Assembly (NCBI GenBank): GCA_051748065.1
Contig: JBNJGZ010000002.1
Coordinates: 1-37,812, forward strand
Direction of reading: 5' to 3'
Length of the DNA stretch: 37,812 nucleotides
Origin: Bacteroidota bacterium
GTDB taxonomy: Bacteria; Bacteroidota; Bacteroidia; Bacteroidales; PWNQ01
Part shown: in pieces, positions 12,953 to 19,766 of the stretch
How positions within the stretch are numbered: position 1 is the first letter of the stretch
Layout of the letters: every line of letters starts with the position of its first letter
Position numbers and translations under genes: made by a program
The notes under the pieces: generated by a model
What the model saw: only the letters and a program-made list of their open reading frames with translations
What the model was told of the DNA's origin: nothing
Databases searched by the model: none

Positions 12953-13471
12953 TTACACGTTCCGAAAATGCTTTTCAATAGCATGAACTGCATTGTTTAA
13001 TCTTTCATTGTTTAATCCGGTAATTATTTCAAAAGGAAAATCTCTTTGCTTTAGTTCATTTTCATATATAGAAAACAACGTTTTTCGTTTATGCGGGTGT
13101 TCTCTTAGTGGATCTTCCTCCCACGGAGTATCAATATAGCAAAGAAGATAAAGATCATAAATATGATTGTCCAATTGCTGCTCAATCCAGTCTGGGCAAC
13201 GGCCAAAAACAAAATCACTCCATATTTTAGGAACCAACATACTGGTGTCACAAAACAACAGACTGTTTGCTTTTTGTGCTTTTTCTTGTTCTAACTCTAA
13301 TTGTTGTTGAGCAATATATAAGATGTCATTCTGATTGTATTCCCTGTTGAGGCTTGCTATATAATCACGGGCATATTCCGGCACCCAAACAGTATCGTAA
13401 TGTTTAGCCAGGTTTTTTGTTAACCAGGATTTTCCGGTCGATTCGGGCCCTGTAATGACAATTCTTTTCAT
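12953..13471 (-). CDS. NadR-type P-loop kinase (nicotinamide riboside kinase-like, AAA_28)
   Basis: GPESTGKS, PEYAR, CDT, WEEDPLRE. The ATG at 13471 is preferred to the TTG at 13477. No NMNAT or HTH domain. Confidence 0.88.
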   Translation of the reverse strand: MKRIVITGPESTGKSWLTKNLAKHYDTVWVPEYARDYIASLNREYNQNDILYIAQQQLELEQEKAQKANSLLFCDTSMLVPKIWSDFVFGRCPDWIEQQLDNHIYDLYLLCYIDTPWEEDPLREHPHKRKTLFSIYENELKQRDFPFEIITGLNNERLNNAVHAIEKHFRNV

Positions 13472-13511
13472 GATCAAATAATTAGGTAATATATAGAAAT
13501 CCTATATATGG

Positions 13512-13519
13512 CAAACTTA
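13512..13519 (-). promoter_or_regulatory. Internal -7 promoter element upstream of the NadR-type kinase
   Basis: TAAGTTTG(C) on the minus strand in the pnuC-kinase gap. Confidence 0.45.
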
Positions 13520-13533
13520 ACTTTTTATCTGGT

Positions 13534-14133
13534 TTATATATTTGTATTTAATTCTTTTTTCCATTCGTGATATCCTTTGAAAGCCAGTATGGTAAGGACG
13601 ATAAACAGTATCGTTGTAGGAAACAATCCCTTAAAAATATAAAGACCGACAGAAACAGCATCTACGACTATCCAAATAATCCAATTTTCAATCAGCTTCC
13701 GGGCAAGCATCCAGGTAGCAACAAAACTTAATGAAGTCGTGAATGCGTCCAAATAAGGAACATCTGAATTGGTGTGGTTTATAAGAATATAACTAATAAT
13801 AACAAACAACAATATTGTTGCCAAAATCAGAAATGGCCAGACCTTCTTTCGTGTACGCGTCACCGGGACTTGCTTTTGGTCTGTTCTTTTTTTTCGGCCA
13901 TAAAGCCAATAGAACCAGCCATAGCCGCTCATTACCAGATAATAAACCTGAAGCGACATGTCAGCGTATAAACGGGCATCAATATAAACAATGATGTATA
14001 GACTCACCATAACAATATTAACCGGCCACAGCCACAGGTTTTGTTTTATCTGAAGAACAATGGAAACAAGACCTAAAGCCATAGCCAGCAATTCGATATA
14101 ATTGCCGGTGATGTATTCAATAATGACTGCCAT
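13534..14133 (-). CDS. pnuC: PnuC-family vitamin/nucleoside transporter
   Basis: About 7 TM helices; WLWP, LYAD..LQVYY, GWFYW, PYLDAFTT, ENWIIW motifs. Confidence 0.92.
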   Translation of the reverse strand: MAVIIEYITGNYIELLAMALGLVSIVLQIKQNLWLWPVNIVMVSLYIIVYIDARLYADMSLQVYYLVMSGYGWFYWLYGRKKRTDQKQVPVTRTRKKVWPFLILATILLFVIISYILINHTNSDVPYLDAFTTSLSFVATWMLARKLIENWIIWIVVDAVSVGLYIFKGLFPTTILFIVLTILAFKGYHEWKKELNTNI

Positions 14134-14135
14134 AG

Positions 14136-14393
14136 TTAGCTTTCAGGCGAAAGGTCTGCATTAATGATTTTTAGCACGAAAATCGATCCGGGTAGCTCAA
14201 ATGATTTATGGATTTCTTTTGTGATAATATCCATCATCTCAAAATATTCTCCAAAAACCTGTGTACTCATTGTATTTACATGAACCCTTATGGAGTCATA
14301 ACTTTTTAAGCGGTCTATAAAACCCTGAATAGGTGCTATGTATTCTTCTTTTAGCGGATAGTAACTAATCTCTATTGATGTCTTCACGTTCAT
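14136..14393 (-). CDS. Small YkoF/thiamine-binding-protein-like (ferredoxin-like fold) protein
   Basis: EISYYPL...I..FI..L and NTMSTQVFGE pattern. The ATG at 14393 gives 85 aa; the longer ORF start runs through AT-rich UTR. Confidence 0.7.
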   Translation of the reverse strand: MNVKTSIEISYYPLKEEYIAPIQGFIDRLKSYDSIRVHVNTMSTQVFGEYFEMMDIITKEIHKSFELPGSIFVLKIINADLSPES

Positions 14394-14511
14394 GATTTTT
14401 TTTGGTTCTATCTTGATAACAACAAAAATTGTTTGCGTTTTATAAACGAATAACAACTAATTTATTTTTTACAATGAAATAATATTTTGTTGTAACGATA
14501 ATTTGTTGCGG

Positions 14512-14543: not shown

Positions 14544-15923
14544 TTAGTAGATAATATTCAGGTTTCCTTTTTTGGTCGTCTGATGTTTATCATTGACTTG
14601 TAAGATGTAATAATAGGAGCCTTGTGGCAGATTACCTCCATCGAAATCATTTTGGTAATTTTCATCTACAAACAGTTCTTTTCCATTGCGGTCTAAAATG
14701 ATGAGTTTGCTGCCGGGGTAATTTTCGAGACCTTCAATTTTAAAGTAATCATTCACTCCGTCACCGTTCGGTGTGATTACATTGGGTATAGTAAGATCGC
14801 AAGATTCAAAGATAACTGTTGTTTGATACTCATAAGTTTCACAACCTGTTATTTCAAGCGAGTAATGTTTTGTAGATGCGGAAATCTCCGAAACAAAATT
14901 TACAGGGCTTTCTACACCATCCGACCATTGAAAATCATATTTCTCATCGTAAAATCCGGGATCCAGTTTCTGGTTCTTATTAATGCAGACGTTATATTGC
15001 CGGCGTAATTTTACATCAGGTTCCGGGAGGTACCGGACTTGAAAATCCGGGGTTGAAATTGTATCGTTTTCAACATTTGTAAGTATGGCAGTATATAAAC
15101 CACTTTCTTCAATCAGCAAGCTATCTTTATCACTGGTATTTGCCCATTTAATGCTATATCCCTTAGGAACAGAAGGTAAATGAAACCAGGTAGGGGAAGT
15201 AATGCACGTATCATTATAAAAGTCCAGTTCTTGAGATACTTGTTCTGATGCAATAGCAATTTCTTCATTTGATGTTTTACCGGCGTCCGATCCTTGTTGA
15301 CTTTCCGAACCTGAATGTTGGCTATCCGGTTGATTTTGGTTTTTTGCGAATTGAGCCTCTGATCCTTTTGCAGAATATTCTCCGTCTTTATTCTCTTGTT
15401 TGGTTGCTTTTTTTTCTTCTTCTGCTTTTTGAGCAGTGGCTGTTTTTCCTGCAGTCTGTTTTCTTTTCTTTAATGTATCCGGCTTTTCTTGTTGTTTTTT
15501 TGCCAGTTCTTTGGTTTTTAATCGACTGATGTCATTTTTGCTCTTTTCTGGGATAACCTGTTGGGATTGATCGTCAGTCTTCTTCTGTTCTTCGGTCTGG
15601 TTGGTGTCAGCGTGCACTAATCCCTGATCAGGTTGTATATTATCGGGTTGTTGTTGAGAGTTATCAGTAAAGTAAAACACAGAAATCAAGACTAGTCCAA
15701 TAATTGCAGCAGCCGCGGCAACTGCAGTCCAGGGCCGGGAAACCAGCTTTTTATAAACCGGTTTCCTGACTGGTTTCGCAGGCATCTCTTTTGTCATGCC
15801 GACGATCTTTGAGGAGAATTCTTCAAAATAGTTCTCAGGAGTCTTAAAACTATCTCCTTTTGCATGACGGTCGATTATGCTTGTGTCAGGCTTATTATTT
15901 GTATATTTTGTTTTTCTTCCCAT
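14544..15923 (-). CDS. Putative anti-sigma factor with single TM helix, disordered linker and gliding-motility-associated (T9SS type B) C-terminal domain
   Basis: N-terminal FKTPENYF motif, TM at aa 65-85, Q/K/E/S-rich linker, C-terminal IPNVITPNGDGVNDYF...DRNG...DG..LP.GSYYY; lies directly after an ECF sigma gene. Confidence 0.8.
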   Translation of the reverse strand: MGRKTKYTNNKPDTSIIDRHAKGDSFKTPENYFEEFSSKIVGMTKEMPAKPVRKPVYKKLVSRPWTAVAAAAAIIGLVLISVFYFTDNSQQQPDNIQPDQGLVHADTNQTEEQKKTDDQSQQVIPEKSKNDISRLKTKELAKKQQEKPDTLKKRKQTAGKTATAQKAEEEKKATKQENKDGEYSAKGSEAQFAKNQNQPDSQHSGSESQQGSDAGKTSNEEIAIASEQVSQELDFYNDTCITSPTWFHLPSVPKGYSIKWANTSDKDSLLIEESGLYTAILTNVENDTISTPDFQVRYLPEPDVKLRRQYNVCINKNQKLDPGFYDEKYDFQWSDGVESPVNFVSEISASTKHYSLEITGCETYEYQTTVIFESCDLTIPNVITPNGDGVNDYFKIEGLENYPGSKLIILDRNGKELFVDENYQNDFDGGNLPQGSYYYILQVNDKHQTTKKGNLNIIY

Positions 15924-15968
15924 GAATTTTCTTATGCTGTCAATAAGATACGTTTTTTCATTTCAGGT

Positions 15969-16517
15969 TTAATCATCTTTTAATTTTTCTTCTATTTTTT
16001 TTACAGCCCAATGATAAGATGCTTTCAAAGAGCCTTCTGATGTATTGAATATTTTGGCCATTTCGGCATAAGGAATTTCTTCGAAATACCTCATATTAAA
16101 GACCATTTGTTGTTTTTCGGGCAAGGATAGGATCGCTTTTTGCAGCTTGAGTTGGGCCTGGTCCCCGTCAAACCAGGGGTCACATTTTAATGACTGAAGC
16201 ATTTCCTCTTTTAATTCGGTTGTAGGTAAATTCCGAAGTCGTTTTTTCTTTCGAAAAAATGTGTACACTTCGTTAATAGTAATGCGATATATCCAGGCAT
16301 AGAGCCCGGATTGATGCCTGAAATTTGCCAGATTTTGCCAGATTTTGATAAAAGTTTCCTGCATCACATCGTTCGTATCTTCATGATTGAGAAGCATACG
16401 ACGGATTATCCAATATACCCTTTGTTGGTATTGGTTTACCAGCATTTCAAACGCTTTCGGACGCTTTTCCGGCTGTTTGAATAATTCAAGTATCTCTTTA
16501 TCTGAGTATGATGGCAT
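15969..16517 (-). CDS. ECF RNA polymerase sigma factor (SigP-like)
   Basis: Region 2 (DVMQETFIKIW, AWIYRITIN) and region 4 (LPEKQQMVFNMRY, SEGSLKASYHWA), plus a DPWFDGD linker; 182 aa. Confidence 0.93.
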   Translation of the reverse strand: MPSYSDKEILELFKQPEKRPKAFEMLVNQYQQRVYWIIRRMLLNHEDTNDVMQETFIKIWQNLANFRHQSGLYAWIYRITINEVYTFFRKKKRLRNLPTTELKEEMLQSLKCDPWFDGDQAQLKLQKAILSLPEKQQMVFNMRYFEEIPYAEMAKIFNTSEGSLKASYHWAVKKIEEKLKDD

Positions 16518-16524
16518 TCAGTTA

Positions 16525-17481
16525 TCATTCCTTGCGACGGAGAACTTTCAGGGCAGCCTCAACAATACTCTTGTCTGTTAATCCGTATTTTTCCATTAAT
16601 TCATCCGGCTTACCACTTTCTCCAAAAGTGTCATCCACACCGACCATTTCCATGGGTGCAGGATAATGTTTCCCTAATGTATGAGCGACGCTTTCACCAA
16701 GTCCTCCGTTTAGCATGTGTTCTTCGGCTGTTACCACACAATTTGTTTTTTTCACCGACTGCAAAATGGTTTTCGTGTCAAGTGGTTTAATTGTATGAAT
16801 ATTAATGACTTCAGTAGATATACCTTTTTGTTTTAATAGTTGTTCTGCCTGAATTGCCGGCCAAACTAAATGACCGGTTGCAATAATAGTGACATCATTT
16901 CCTTCCGTAAGTTTAATTGCTTCCCCAATTTTAAATGGCATGTTTTCGGGTATAAATACCGGCATTTTAGGTCGGCCAAAGCGTAAATAAACCGGGCCGT
17001 AGTGTTCAGCAGCAGCTTTAGTAGCCTGCATGGTTTGCGTATAATCGCATGGATTGATAACCGTCATATTGGGAAGCATTTTCATCATGCCAAGATCTTC
17101 CAGCATTTGGTGCGTAGCTCCGTCTTCTCCTAATGTTAGCCCCGCATGAGATACACAAATTTTAACATTCTTATTACTATAGGCTATAGATTGGCGAATT
17201 TGATCGTACACGCGGCCTGAGCCAAAATTAGCAAATGTAGACGGAAAAGGAATTTTTCCTGCTGTTGCCATGCCGGCAGCAACGCCCATCATATTAGCCT
17301 CGGATATGCCGGATTGGAAAAACCGTTCCGGATAAGCTTTCGCAAAGTCTCCCATTTTTAGCGAACCTGTCAGGTCTGCGCATAAACCGACAACCTGATC
17401 GTTATCTTTGGCGATTTCGAGTAATGCTGCTCCATAGCCGGAGCGAGTGTCTTTATGATCTCTTACTTTATATTTGTTCAT
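16525..17481 (-). CDS. Transketolase, C-terminal subunit
   Basis: ADLTGS, GISEANM, GEDGATHQ, GPVYLRFGR, EEH. Confidence 0.95.
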   Translation of the reverse strand: MNKYKVRDHKDTRSGYGAALLEIAKDNDQVVGLCADLTGSLKMGDFAKAYPERFFQSGISEANMMGVAAGMATAGKIPFPSTFANFGSGRVYDQIRQSIAYSNKNVKICVSHAGLTLGEDGATHQMLEDLGMMKMLPNMTVINPCDYTQTMQATKAAAEHYGPVYLRFGRPKMPVFIPENMPFKIGEAIKLTEGNDVTIIATGHLVWPAIQAEQLLKQKGISTEVINIHTIKPLDTKTILQSVKKTNCVVTAEEHMLNGGLGESVAHTLGKHYPAPMEMVGVDDTFGESGKPDELMEKYGLTDKSIVEAALKVLRRKE

Positions 17482-17493
17482 GATTTTTGATTT

Positions 17494-18894
17494 TTAATTC
17501 TTATATATTGATATGGTTTGGGCTTCTCCTGATTTTATTTCGAAATCAACTTCACGTGTATGCTTTGAACGGTTTGTAGCCCGGGAGCGAAATACTACCT
17601 TATAATCTCCGGGTAATAAAAATAATGATTCCCGCTGTTGATTTTCAGGCAGGTTATAAACCCATTTTAAACTTCCATCATCTTCATATTTGTATATACT
17701 GCCATAGCCTAAAGTTCCCATTTGAATGACGACCATGCCGGGACTCGGGATATCTATAGTGGTCGTATGGTTATGGTTAACGGCTACATCCTCAATATTT
17801 AAACGGGGAAGAGTTAATACTTCCAAATCGTATTTTCCGATTAAATATTTTTCTTTTTTGCCAACATTTTGGACATTAAGTGTTTTCATCTTGCCATCTT
17901 TTCTTACAATACAATTGATATGATGGGTTTTGTTTTTTTTGCCGTCAAATTTCAATTTTAAATATCCTTGCGGAGCATCAATGCCGATTTTATTATGTTT
18001 TCCTGCCGTTAAGCTGAAGGAGTCAATGGTTAAGGGGGGAATTGTATGAATATCAATTTTATATGTGATCATTGGGTCTAACTTGAGTGTGTCCGGGTTT
18101 CCTTTGGCATTAAGTGTATGAATGAGATTATATTTTAGTTCGTCTGAAGTTTTATTATAGAAAGACATATTCACGTTAGTCTCAGTGGGCTTTCCATTAA
18201 TGTCCAGCAGATTGACCTGAGCAGTTGTCGGATTAAGGGCTCTGTCAATAGCAATATTAAGCGCAGTGCGAAATTCATCTTCATTTTGAGTGTCGTAATA
18301 TGTTCCTACACAGTCAAAAGCGTCTTTGAAATCTTTTCCAATGCCGATAACAAAAGGTTTTAAAATGACACCTTTTTCCTGAAGTTTAATAGAAACATCA
18401 CAGGGGTCTCCACCGCATTCTTCAATTCCATCGGTGATCAGAATAATGATATTCCGGCAATTTTCACATTCAGTGAAATCGTCAGCAGCCTGTTCCAGAG
18501 AGCGGGCTATCGGTGTGGTTCCTTTGGGAGCAATGGATTTTAGTTTGTGTACGATCTGGTCAATATTGTCATCTTCGAATGGGATTTCCAGTTTAGTGTC
18601 GTCACATTGCTGGGGTGGAAAATGGTGTTGATGTCCATATACGCGAAGACCTAACTGCATGTTTTTATGTCCGCGTAAGCTGTCTAACATTTCGGTTAGT
18701 AACCTTCGGGCAATGTCTATTTTGGGTTCATTATCCCATTCTCCGTACATACTCCTGGAGGCATCAAAAACAAAAAGGATACGTGTTAACTGATTATTTT
18801 TGCTTTCTGTTTTTTGGTGTTGGGCAATAACAGACTTAGTGGTTATTAGAGCCAACAGAAAAAATAACGTAATAAGAGCGCTTTTGATCCTCAT
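17494..18894 (-). CDS. Secreted von Willebrand factor A domain protein
   Basis: Signal peptide, MIDAS DxSxS (DASRS), GTTP, ITDG.E.CGGDPC; beta-rich C-terminal half. Confidence 0.88.
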   Translation of the reverse strand: MRIKSALITLFFLLALITTKSVIAQHQKTESKNNQLTRILFVFDASRSMYGEWDNEPKIDIARRLLTEMLDSLRGHKNMQLGLRVYGHQHHFPPQQCDDTKLEIPFEDDNIDQIVHKLKSIAPKGTTPIARSLEQAADDFTECENCRNIIILITDGIEECGGDPCDVSIKLQEKGVILKPFVIGIGKDFKDAFDCVGTYYDTQNEDEFRTALNIAIDRALNPTTAQVNLLDINGKPTETNVNMSFYNKTSDELKYNLIHTLNAKGNPDTLKLDPMITYKIDIHTIPPLTIDSFSLTAGKHNKIGIDAPQGYLKLKFDGKKNKTHHINCIVRKDGKMKTLNVQNVGKKEKYLIGKYDLEVLTLPRLNIEDVAVNHNHTTTIDIPSPGMVVIQMGTLGYGSIYKYEDDGSLKWVYNLPENQQRESLFLLPGDYKVVFRSRATNRSKHTREVDFEIKSGEAQTISIYKN

Positions 18895-18920: not shown

Positions 18921-19766
18921 TCAAAAATCACCTAAGGTTTCCGGTAATTGTTCCAAAGCTTTTTTGACTAGCTCATCATCAGGAGCTTTTCCGTGCCATT
19001 CATGAGTTCCCTGCATATAATCCACCCCATGTCCCATATCTGTATGCATAAGAATAATAACCGGTTTTCCCTGGCCGGTCATGGATTTTGCTTTTTTCAT
19101 AGTTTTCAGTATATCGTCAAAATCATGCCCGTTCATTTCCAGTGTTATCCAACCGAAAGCTACCCACTTGGCTTTCAGGTCACCAAGATCATTAACTTTT
19201 TCCACGGGTCCGTCAATTTGTTGCCCGTTGAAATCTACTGTAGCTATGATGTTGTCTATTTTTTTGGATGCTCCGAAAAGAGCGGCTTCCCAAATTTGCC
19301 CTTCTTGTAATTCCCCATCTCCGTGCAGGCTGTAAACAATCTTATTGTCATTGTCCAGCTTTTTAGCTAAAGCATGACCTAAAGCCGCTGACATACCTTG
19401 ACCCAAAGAGCCGGAAGCGATTCGTACTCCCGGAAGACCTTCTTCCGTGGCCGGATGGCCCTGCAAACGGGAATTAATTTTGCGAAACGTTTTGAGCTCG
19501 GAAATGTCAAAATAGCCATTTCTTGCCAGAATACTATACCATAGCGGTGAAATGTGCCCATTAGAAAGATAAAAGATATCTTGTCCTTTTCCTGCCATAG
19601 TGAAATTTGAAGGGTCATGCTCCATGATCTCAAAATATAAAGCAGTCATGAAGTCTGCGCAACCCAAAGAACCTCCCGGGTGCCCCGAGTTTACTGCATG
19701 TACCATGCGGATAATATCTCTTCTGGATTGATTTGCAATTTCTTGGAGTTCTGTAGTGCTTGTCAT
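18921..19766 (-). CDS. Transketolase, N-terminal (TPP-binding) subunit
   Basis: SGHPGGSL, LSNGH, LQGHP, GSLGQG, GDGELQEGQIWEA, WHGKAP. Confidence 0.95.
   Translation of the reverse strand: MTSTTELQEIANQSRRDIIRMVHAVNSGHPGGSLGCADFMTALYFEIMEHDPSNFTMAGKGQDIFYLSNGHISPLWYSILARNGYFDISELKTFRKINSRLQGHPATEEGLPGVRIASGSLGQGMSAALGHALAKKLDNDNKIVYSLHGDGELQEGQIWEAALFGASKKIDNIIATVDFNGQQIDGPVEKVNDLGDLKAKWVAFGWITLEMNGHDFDDILKTMKKAKSMTGQGKPVIILMHTDMGHGVDYMQGTHEWHGKAPDDELVKKALEQLPETLGDF

Follow-up and report, generated by a model that had tools for sequence, protein, structure and literature searches.

Can an anti-sigma factor be addressed by a secretion signal? The question is raised by a 37,812-nt stretch of DNA (hereafter the window; contig JBNJGZ010000002.1, positions 1 to 37,812 of the forward strand, assembly GCA_051748065.1) from a Bacteroidota bacterium of the order Bacteroidales. 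The gene directly after an extracytoplasmic function (ECF) sigma factor gene in this window encodes a 459-aa protein (hereafter the partner), in which an N-terminal segment predicted to bind the sigma factor is followed by a single transmembrane (TM) helix, a long disordered tether, two immunoglobulin (Ig)-like modules and a T9SS (type IX secretion system) C-terminal domain (CTD) of type B. The partner is very probably a single-pass anti-sigma factor, cognate to the ECF sigma factor encoded beside it, and its architecture suggests that gene control is wired to the T9SS. The features concerned are the following, with the open reading frame (ORF) upstream of the sigma gene given last.

15969..16517, minus strand: ECF sigma factor gene, 182 aa (Pfam and NCBIfam matches above cut-off)
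15924..15968, minus strand: spacer of 45 nt between the sigma and anti-sigma genes (ORF coordinates)
14544..15923, minus strand: partner gene, 459 aa (ORF)
15735..15923, minus strand: predicted cytoplasmic segment of the partner, aa 1-63, with FKTPENYF at aa 26-33 (invariant motif; predicted complex with the sigma factor)
15666..15734, minus strand: single predicted TM helix, aa 64-86, an N-in signal anchor (Kyte-Doolittle; AlphaFold2; preceding basic stretch)
15210..15665, minus strand: predicted disordered, Q/K/E/S-rich periplasmic tether, aa 87-238 (low model confidence; length kept)
14793..15209, minus strand: two Ig-like, Cys-containing beta modules, aa 239-377 (high model confidence; invariant residues; Foldseek)
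14547..14792, minus strand: T9SS type-B C-terminal sorting domain, aa 378-459 (PF13585, TIGR04131, hallmark residues and a match to GhpA)
16525..17481, minus strand: C-terminal half of a transketolase (ORF; ends 7 nt before the sigma start)

The 182-aa protein is an ECF (group 4) sigma-70 factor with the sigma2 and sigma4 domains only, which are matched by Sigma70_r2 (PF04542, 1.1e-17) and Sigma70_r4_2 (PF08281, 5.4e-13) of Pfam, while TIGR02937 matches at 98.8 bits (cut-off 42.9). The N-terminal 90 aa of the partner align with 118-220-aa proteins encoded directly after orthologous sigma genes. With aa 1-100 as the query, homologues were found in six of the seven genomes of the genus, each directly after a 182-aa sigma factor; five are ORFs of 453-483 aa, while the sixth (212 aa) is truncated where its contig ends. 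Elsewhere in the order, the same query matched proteins of 118-166 aa from other families, again encoded directly after a sigma factor that is 46-49% identical to that of the window. An alignment of 19 N-termini, long and short, revealed that P29, Y32 and F33 are invariant within P-F-x-V-P-x-x-Y-F-D-x-L, which is followed by a helix and a hydrophobic segment. Of 401 genomes of the order, 270 have a match to a profile of this N-terminus, nearly always just one, and the ORFs concerned are mostly 118-220 aa long. A search with the sigma alignment recovered 80 loci of named Bacteroidota (47-55% identity), whose carriers include Pontibacter, Pedobacter, Mucilaginibacter, Chitinophaga, Bacteroides, Parabacteroides and Flavobacteriaceae, and the gene after the orthologous sigma bears the motif near its N-terminus in 75 of these 80 loci. 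As the sigma tree follows taxonomy, the sigma factor and its partner appear to be an old, vertically inherited pair. Small proteins with the motif and a TM helix, which an earlier reading of the sequence alone (hereafter the sequence-only reading) had named as the usual neighbours downstream of this class of sigma factors, are thus indeed usual across the phylum, and the downstream gene of the window is anti-sigma-like, as that reading had held.

Neither Pfam nor NCBIfam holds a model for the N-terminus of the partner; the best match, NF052375 ('anti-sigma factor'), scores 15-21 bits, and 15.3 bits for the partner in the window, at a cut-off of 100. Recognised anti-sigma domains (ASD/zf-HC2, RskA, FecR and the like) were not found in the partner with the models of these two databases, and no solved structure related to its N-terminus was found by a profile search of PDB. 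The pairing described above gives a likely function to this family of small proteins outside Pfam and NCBIfam, which is recognised by F-x-[VT]-P-x-x-Y-F and a TM helix and is encoded after a phylum-wide ECF sigma factor. Some partners of the same sigma factor (L085, L107, L111, L124 and L138; 310-497 aa, from Sphingobacteriia- or Chitinophagia-like genomes) are without a Pfam or NCBIfam domain and have no hydrophobic segment in their first 130 residues; they represent another elaboration of the same anti-sigma family.

The complex predicted for the sigma factor and aa 1-62 of the partner has an ipSAE of 0.86, compared with 0.29 for the best of three controls. Of 80 solved complexes, 58 attain the mark used for this score, and of 110 mismatched pairs, 2 do so; this calibration is rough here as custom alignments were used. 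Three runs share at least 75% of the contacts, with a predicted local distance difference test score (pLDDT) of at least 67 for the partner. In the model, partner residues 12-47, which include the invariant motif, lie against residues 20-60 and 115-180 of the sigma factor, that is, against sigma2 and sigma4. Residues 1-63 are accordingly modelled, and here predicted, as a clamp on both sigma domains, in line with the binding that the sequence-only reading had proposed to examine by complex modelling.

The AlphaFold2 model of the whole partner, which was built on 46 relatives and has a mean pLDDT of 73, contains short helices at aa 15-21 and 36-45 and a long helix at aa 64-86. The long helix coincides with the hydrophobic helix at about aa 64-86 (Kyte-Doolittle maximum 2.51), ahead of which a basic stretch is read in the sequence. 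Judged from its sequence, the partner appears to have no cleavable Sec signal peptide, because its only hydrophobic segment, aa 64-86, sits behind a conserved, predicted sigma-binding segment of 63 aa and is not followed by a small-x-small site, the rule for signal-peptide cleavage sites. Residues 91-228 have a pLDDT below 50, and 79% of them are K, R, E, D, Q, N, S, T, P or G. The beta domains are modelled with a pLDDT above 90 at aa 239-377 and mostly above 90 at aa 239-457. In the family alignment of the Ig-like modules, C240, W260, W333, C361 and C375 are invariant and C313 is also conserved. Foldseek matched the beta modules to tandem Ig folds, including that of GhpA (grappling hook protein A of Aureispira, according to its PDB entry), although these are generic matches with low TM-scores; Ig_7 of Pfam matches 5 of the 46 family members. 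CHU_C (PF13585) is the sole Pfam family matched by the partner (aa 378-456, 1e-22, 80.5 bits, cut-off 27), and TIGR04131, the model of the type-B sorting domain, matches at 49.7 bits (cut-off 35). Both models are therefore above their cut-offs at the extreme C-terminus, and the arrangement in the sequence-only reading, with two minus-strand ORFs 45 nt apart and a partner composed of motif, TM helix, linker, Cys-containing beta modules and type-B CTD, is found again element by element at the same places.

For assessing whether the sorting signal is intact, 27 columns in the last 95 residues, each with a consensus of at least 60% among 64 cargo proteins, were taken as CTD hallmarks. The mean frequency of the hallmark residues is 0.84 in 48 anti-sigma CTDs versus 0.81 in cargo. 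The CTD of the window keeps 23 of the 27 hallmark residues of cargo and ranks sixth among the ten TIGR04131 matches of its genome, and the partner tail matches the extreme C-terminus of GhpA at 3.6e-7. With both models above cut-off, the hallmarks kept and a linker with a pLDDT below 50, the proposal that the CTD is an intact one of type B and is carried by a long, disordered tether in the periplasm is upheld, and the sorting signal of the window's partner looks functional. The column of the R-W-G tryptophan corresponds to aa 413 of the partner (window 14683-14685), and absence of this tryptophan is a signature of the family. At the very end, R or K is found in 40 of 46 family members, as in cargo, and in all eight of the other complete type-B CTDs of the window's genome, whereas the partner ends in -IIY; the endings -IIY, -IIF and -IVH are restricted to the window's group. 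The terminal -IIY to which the sequence-only reading had drawn attention is hence real and unusual in its genome, but the suggestion that it marks a decoy signal is weak, because the odd terminus is a trait of the genus and not of the family.

How widely is this long, CTD-bearing form distributed? A HMMER search of 1.84 billion representatives of 50%-identity clusters gave 29,707 matches at E <= 0.001, most of them to the CTD; 48 of the best 150 representatives are proteins of about 400-525 aa with the N-terminal motif, the TM helix and a C-terminal CHU_C. PF13585 matches all 46 of the aligned long-form members, which are from Bacteroidales or Bacteroidetes metagenome-assembled genomes (MAGs) and bear no public names other than 'gliding motility-associated C-terminal domain-containing protein' or 'hypothetical protein'. 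Within the order, the long form is present in 16 of 401 genomes, the window's included, and these belong to families f1, f14, f49, f51, f130 and f156. In 400 further genomes of the phylum, 7 of them of the same order and with four candidates scored per genome, no full-length match was found outside the window's genome, and the matches were to the C-terminal ~220 aa of large cargo proteins. One of the 75 phylum-wide partners has a CTD (L118, 428 aa). The short partner of most Bacteroidota ends soon after the membrane, the extended periplasmic end is found in six families of the order, and the carriers of the long form are uncultured lineages.

All 15 of the long-form loci examined repeat the tandem order seen in the window, with a gene directly upstream, in the same orientation, for a sigma factor 40-90% identical to that of the window; there is none in the 1.5-kb flanks of 14 loci of cargo genes with related tails. 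The sequence-only reading had named confinement of the fusion to this genome as an outcome that would speak against its proposal, and such confinement is not seen: the fusion recurs in six families and stands beside the sigma gene in 15 of 15 loci. Among 46 members, the tether ranges from 113 to 212 aa, with a median of about 150, and its sequence is not conserved, while the folded C-terminal module is 213-231 aa long in every one. When the last 225 aa of 48 long forms and of 64 cargo proteins are placed in one tree, 2 changes of the anti-sigma label suffice, compared with a mean of 36 after shuffling; 43 long forms are placed together (Shimodaira-Hasegawa-like approximate likelihood ratio test, SH-aLRT, 89), and the window's group of 5 forms a separate clade (100) in an unresolved region of the tree. 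The corresponding figures for the sigma tree are 3 changes and a shuffled mean of 15, and more than one origin of the long form is not forced by well-supported branches in either tree. The cargo proteins with the nearest tails are about 590-1360 aa long. Most simply, an anti-sigma gene would have acquired the 3' end of a cargo gene long ago, in one event or a few, and the fusion would then have descended vertically.

The genome of the window, a MAG that is 82.75% complete, encodes SprA (2745 bits), a fragment of GldM at a contig end and an RseP-type protease (227.6 bits). It also encodes ten TIGR04131 proteins and four PorP/SprF proteins (TIGR03519 matches on contigs C141, C190, C10 and C48). 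The CTD genes on C141 and C48 have a PorP gene right downstream, and the other eight, including that of the partner, have none; no CTD gene adjoins the PorP genes on C190 and C10. Type-B cargo genes usually have the gene of their cognate PorP/SprF-like shuttle beside them. The sequence-only reading was right that a PorP/SprF gene is not adjacent to the partner gene, and none was found on the window's contig, but this is no peculiarity: in Flavobacterium johnsoniae, three orphan cargo proteins that bear a type-B CTD share the orphan SprF-like shuttle Fjoh_1677 (PMC12618676). Type-B CTDs are described as staying attached and holding cargo on PorP-like barrels (PMC9143113), and SprF as disulfide-linked to the moving GldK track (PMC12635249).

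Based on this architecture, we propose that the cytoplasmic ~60 residues of the partner, with the motif and helix, would clamp sigma2 and sigma4 of the sigma factor, and that the one hydrophobic helix would anchor the partner, N-in, in the inner membrane. The added periplasmic end would consist of a disordered tether of ~150 residues and the last ~220 residues of a type-B cargo protein (Ig-Ig-CHU_C). The translocon of the T9SS, together with an orphan shuttle of the PorP/SprF type, could recognise its sorting domain, and the partner would then reach from the inner membrane to the T9SS or outer membrane. Whether the T9SS takes hold of it or fails to do so may alter proteolysis of the tether, and site-2 cleavage of the RseP type might then free the sigma factor. 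The analysis shows the architecture, the conserved pairing with the sigma factor, the predicted binding of the two, a sorting signal that is intact, and a T9SS and RseP in the genome, whereas we infer that the T9SS engages the partner, which way the signal runs and which genes it controls. That the T9SS engages the CTD of the partner at all is, on balance, slightly favoured. Evenly poised is the fuller proposal, in which the partner is an envelope-spanning anti-sigma factor like the Dma proteins (Pardue et al., 2024; PMC10927553), the CTD and an orphan PorP-like shuttle bring its distal end to the outer membrane, and loss or gain of this engagement alters cleavage of the tether, whereupon RseP frees the sigma factor. 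A bolder version, which we consider unlikely, is a force-driven checkpoint of secretion or motility: an orphan SprF-like shuttle would pick up the tail at SprA and, on the GldK track, stretch the anchored tether until cleavage frees the sigma factor. If it were true, transcription would report directly whether the T9SS or gliding apparatus runs, and the partner would be the first anti-sigma factor read out via a secretion signal and the first known inner-membrane client of the T9SS.

As for the genes under control of the sigma factor, many short-form lineages have a bipartite site, TTAAACCTTT-N13-GTCT[AT]A, at a distance of 37-73 nt upstream of the sigma start. Sites of the strict pattern occur in 18 loci, and sites found by a position weight matrix (PWM) in ~30 of 96 loci, compared with at most 7 for any word pair in shuffles. 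The loci with the site (L072, L080, L082, L086, L089, L096, L108, L110, L115, L119, L121, L134, L136, L143, L148 and others) are from many classes of Bacteroidota. The site is probably the autoregulated promoter of the phylum-wide ECF sigma factor. Matches at about -270 to -300 were discarded, as they are in transketolase coding sequence (I-K-P-L-D). The PWM scan of the window's own genome found 6 sites with a score of at least 16 versus 2-5 in shuffles and 4 sites with at least 20 versus 1-2; these numbers do not clearly exceed those of the shuffles. Its best three sites, C25:16550 (plus strand), C157:4711 (minus strand) and C4:30873 (plus strand) (L153, L152 and L154, respectively), lie 56-81 nt before genes for secreted proteins. 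These are a 462-aa type-A CTD cargo protein on C25 (Por_Secre_tail, 1.8e-12), a protein of more than 1551 aa on C157 and a 519-aa protein on C4, whose gene is followed by an Omp85/POTRA gene. Five named genomes have 0-2 exact sites each, 6 in total, and 3 of these 6 are in the sigma factor's own operon, two before the sigma gene and one before that of its partner.

Several observations weigh against the proposed link between this anti-sigma factor and the T9SS. The complex score is a model confidence that is calibrated only roughly. The R-W-G tryptophan, found in 70% of cargo, is found in none of the 48 anti-sigma CTDs (N in 67%), and its loss might change the choice of shuttle or block translocation; the window's genus has lost W at position 427 and the terminal basic residue as well. 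None of the 15 long-form loci has an adjacent PorP/SprF gene. PorP/SprF is encoded in every one of 15 long-form genomes, yet 145 of 151 genomes of the order likewise encode it, so that co-occurrence with the T9SS says nothing. The bipartite promoter site was not found upstream of the window's sigma gene or of the other long-form sigma genes, and the promoter scans of the window's genome and the five named genomes established no regulon link between the sigma factor and the T9SS. To our knowledge, no experiment or structure has a membrane-tethered CTD entering or docking on the T9SS. The T9SS cargo proteins that have been described all possess a cleavable Sec signal (PMC9143113, PMC12618676).

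Some of these points would be explained if the partner were a true anti-sigma factor in which Ig-Ig-CHU_C serves only as a T9SS-independent periplasmic sensor or binding domain (for a ligand, peptidoglycan or the periplasmic face of a protein), with the likeness to a sorting signal as a legacy of the donor gene. This explanation, the main alternative, which we hold to be rather doubtful, accords with a partner that apparently lacks a cleavable signal peptide and would stay tethered, with the lack of any precedent for a tethered chain threaded through SprA, with the lost R-W-G tryptophan in 48 of 48 members, with the loss in the genus of a terminal R or K that all eight other CTDs of the genome keep, and with the absence of an adjoining PorP/SprF gene. 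However, 26 of the 27 hallmark columns are kept as in cargo, down to ~20% overall identity, a degree of conservation not easily understood unless binding to the same partners is selected; the module is always at the extreme C-terminus, with R or K at the end of 40 of 46 members, and the tether is never shorter than 113 aa.

The closeness of the C-terminal module to the tails of ~590-1360-aa cargo proteins, and the finding of Dma1 as the full-length protein and as C-terminal fragments (PMC10927553), would also fit a bifunctional precursor, whose tether is cut constitutively and whose C-terminal part is an ordinary secreted adhesin, co-produced with the sigma and anti-sigma factors and without feedback from the T9SS. 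Such a precursor is improbable in our judgement: the passenger is minimal, with two Ig modules and no enzymatic or adhesin domain, and measures 213-231 aa in 46 of 46 members, and the invariant pairing with the sigma factor in 15 of 15 loci across six families argues that the fusion itself is selected. Finally, the public names of the long forms, which are only of the cargo type or hypothetical, would suit an ordinary T9SS cargo gene that stands beside the sigma gene by chance and whose N-terminus is a long signal sequence or the result of a miscalled start. That is very hard to believe, as the N-terminal 60 residues are conserved, with P29 and F33 never varying, and recur in 118-220-aa partners that are not cargo, binding to the sigma factor is predicted (0.86 versus 0.29), and the sigma gene adjoins 15 of 15 long-form loci versus 0 of 14 cargo loci.

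Around the two genes, the transketolase neighbour upstream of the sigma gene is retained in most long-form loci, and the transketolase half and the sigma gene may share one transcript; a contig assembled from an RNA library spans their junction (16276-16664), although a single transcript is not thereby proven. Other RNA-library contigs, from runs of two studies, are identical to the window on the anti-sigma gene (14709-14882, 15063-15656 and 15642-15911). They fit expression of this gene but are no proof of it, as carry-over of DNA is possible, and the uncovered parts of the stretch carry no information. The transketolase is split on the minus strand into halves at 18921-19766 and 16525-17481, between which a 466-aa secreted protein with a von Willebrand factor A (VWA) domain is encoded (17494-18894); a VWA-like gene is also found upstream of the sigma gene in locus L012. 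The anti-sigma gene is followed downstream (12953-14456, minus strand) by genes for a small protein, which Thiamine_BP matches weakly (E 0.012), a multi-pass membrane protein of 199 aa and a P-loop protein of 174 aa. The latter two, putatively PnuC-like and NadR-like, respectively, reappear after the fusion gene in family f156 (L044, L046, L053 and L055). In family f51, the product of the gene after the fusion (L048:208-1356 and L052:285-1604, both minus strand) is secreted and contains a PagL domain (lipid A 3-O-deacylase; 2.2e-9 and 9.4e-7), and the sigma gene has a CTD-type cargo gene just upstream. In these two f51 loci, the beta-barrel gene downstream of the fusion was considered as encoding the cognate shuttle and rejected, as its product is PagL-like rather than PorP. 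The third gene of the short-form operons gave a single weak match to Metal_resist (E 0.0023, below the cut-off).

Compared with known systems, the partner shares with canonical type-B cargo proteins (SprB, Fjoh_3952, PG1035 and GhpA) a C-terminal CHU_C/TIGR04131 match above cut-off, the hallmark residues and Ig-like modules before the CTD. Its orphan status, with no adjacent porP, is that of three cargo proteins of F. johnsoniae (PMC12618676). Unlike canonical cargo, it appears to have a predicted sigma-binding segment of 63 aa and an anchor in place of a cleavable Sec signal, its passenger consists of two Ig modules only, and the R-W-G tryptophan is replaced in all 48 members. The partner challenges the view that all CTD proteins pass through the periplasm as intermediates released by Sec.

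Most of what is known about T9SS regulation comes from one species and concerns PorXY-SigP and PorA. There, in Porphyromonas gingivalis, PorA (PGN_0123) and PorXY-SigP provide a precedent for a CTD protein that feeds information on the T9SS or cell surface to an ECF sigma factor controlling T9SS genes (PMC7712824). According to that article, however, PorA is a separate, Sec-exported surface protein with a type-A CTD and acts via PorY and PorX, with neither an anti-sigma factor nor an inner-membrane tether (PMC7712824). Single-pass anti-sigma factors of the RseA type, which are released through intramembrane proteolysis by DegS and RseP (PMC10927553), resemble the partner in having a cytoplasmic sigma clamp (predicted in the partner), one TM helix and a periplasmic sensing part, and an RseP homologue is encoded in the genome. 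The partner differs from them in its cytoplasmic segment of only ~60 aa, in the lack of a known anti-sigma domain and in its long tether, at the end of which sits a module with a secretion signal.

FlgM, the anti-sigma-28 factor, is exported by the flagellar type III system and thereby removed from its sigma factor. It is alike in that the activity of a secretion machine sets that of a sigma factor, as proposed for the partner. The analogy with FlgM that the sequence-only reading had drawn is nevertheless poor, because the sigma-binding part of the partner would stay behind its membrane anchor and only the distal end carries an export signal; the dual-membrane Dma anti-sigma factors are a closer precedent (PMC10927553). 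Dma1 of Bacteroides is described as binding its sigma factor through an N-terminal region, which is followed by a helix in the inner membrane, a periplasmic region that is disordered and a domain in the outer membrane, and as being processed; the C-terminal domain of Dma is an 8-stranded outer-membrane barrel, with the full-length protein found in membranes and C-terminal fragments in vesicles, and of 29 Bacteroidota, 27 are reported to have Dma1 (Pardue et al., 2024; PMC10927553). Dma and the partner alike bind the sigma factor at the N-terminus (by prediction in the partner), cross the inner membrane with one helix, continue in the periplasm as a long disordered stretch and end in a folded C-terminal module that is, or in the partner would be, bound for the outer membrane; both are confined to Bacteroidota, and release by proteolysis is proposed for both. 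They differ in the distal module, which is an 8-stranded OMP_b-brl_2 barrel in Dma and two Ig modules with a type-B CTD in the partner (no match to PF13568), and by implication in delivery, via the beta-barrel assembly machinery (BAM) for Dma and via the T9SS for the partner. The sigma factor of the partner also belongs to a different orthologous group from that of Dma (Das1, ECF21), as the Bacteroides orthologues of the window's sigma factor have partners of 124-125 aa. No Dma-type gene, that is, a sigma gene with a TM protein that ends in an OMP_b-brl_2 barrel, was seen among the 12 PF13568 matches of this 83% complete MAG, the four longest of which (on C55, C90, C70 and C185) were inspected.

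In full-text searches, whose coverage leaves out most subscription journals, no paper emerged on an anti-sigma factor that carries a T9SS CTD. The partner is best read as an anti-sigma factor on the plan of the Dma proteins of Bacteroides, but with a T9SS cargo tail where those have an outer-membrane barrel. A conserved anti-sigma factor with a T9SS sorting module as its only extracytoplasmic folded part offers a direct and testable link between a secretion machine and transcription. If the link is true, the principle of anti-sigma factors that extend from the cytoplasm to the outer membrane, as described for Dma, would be extended to a second delivery route.

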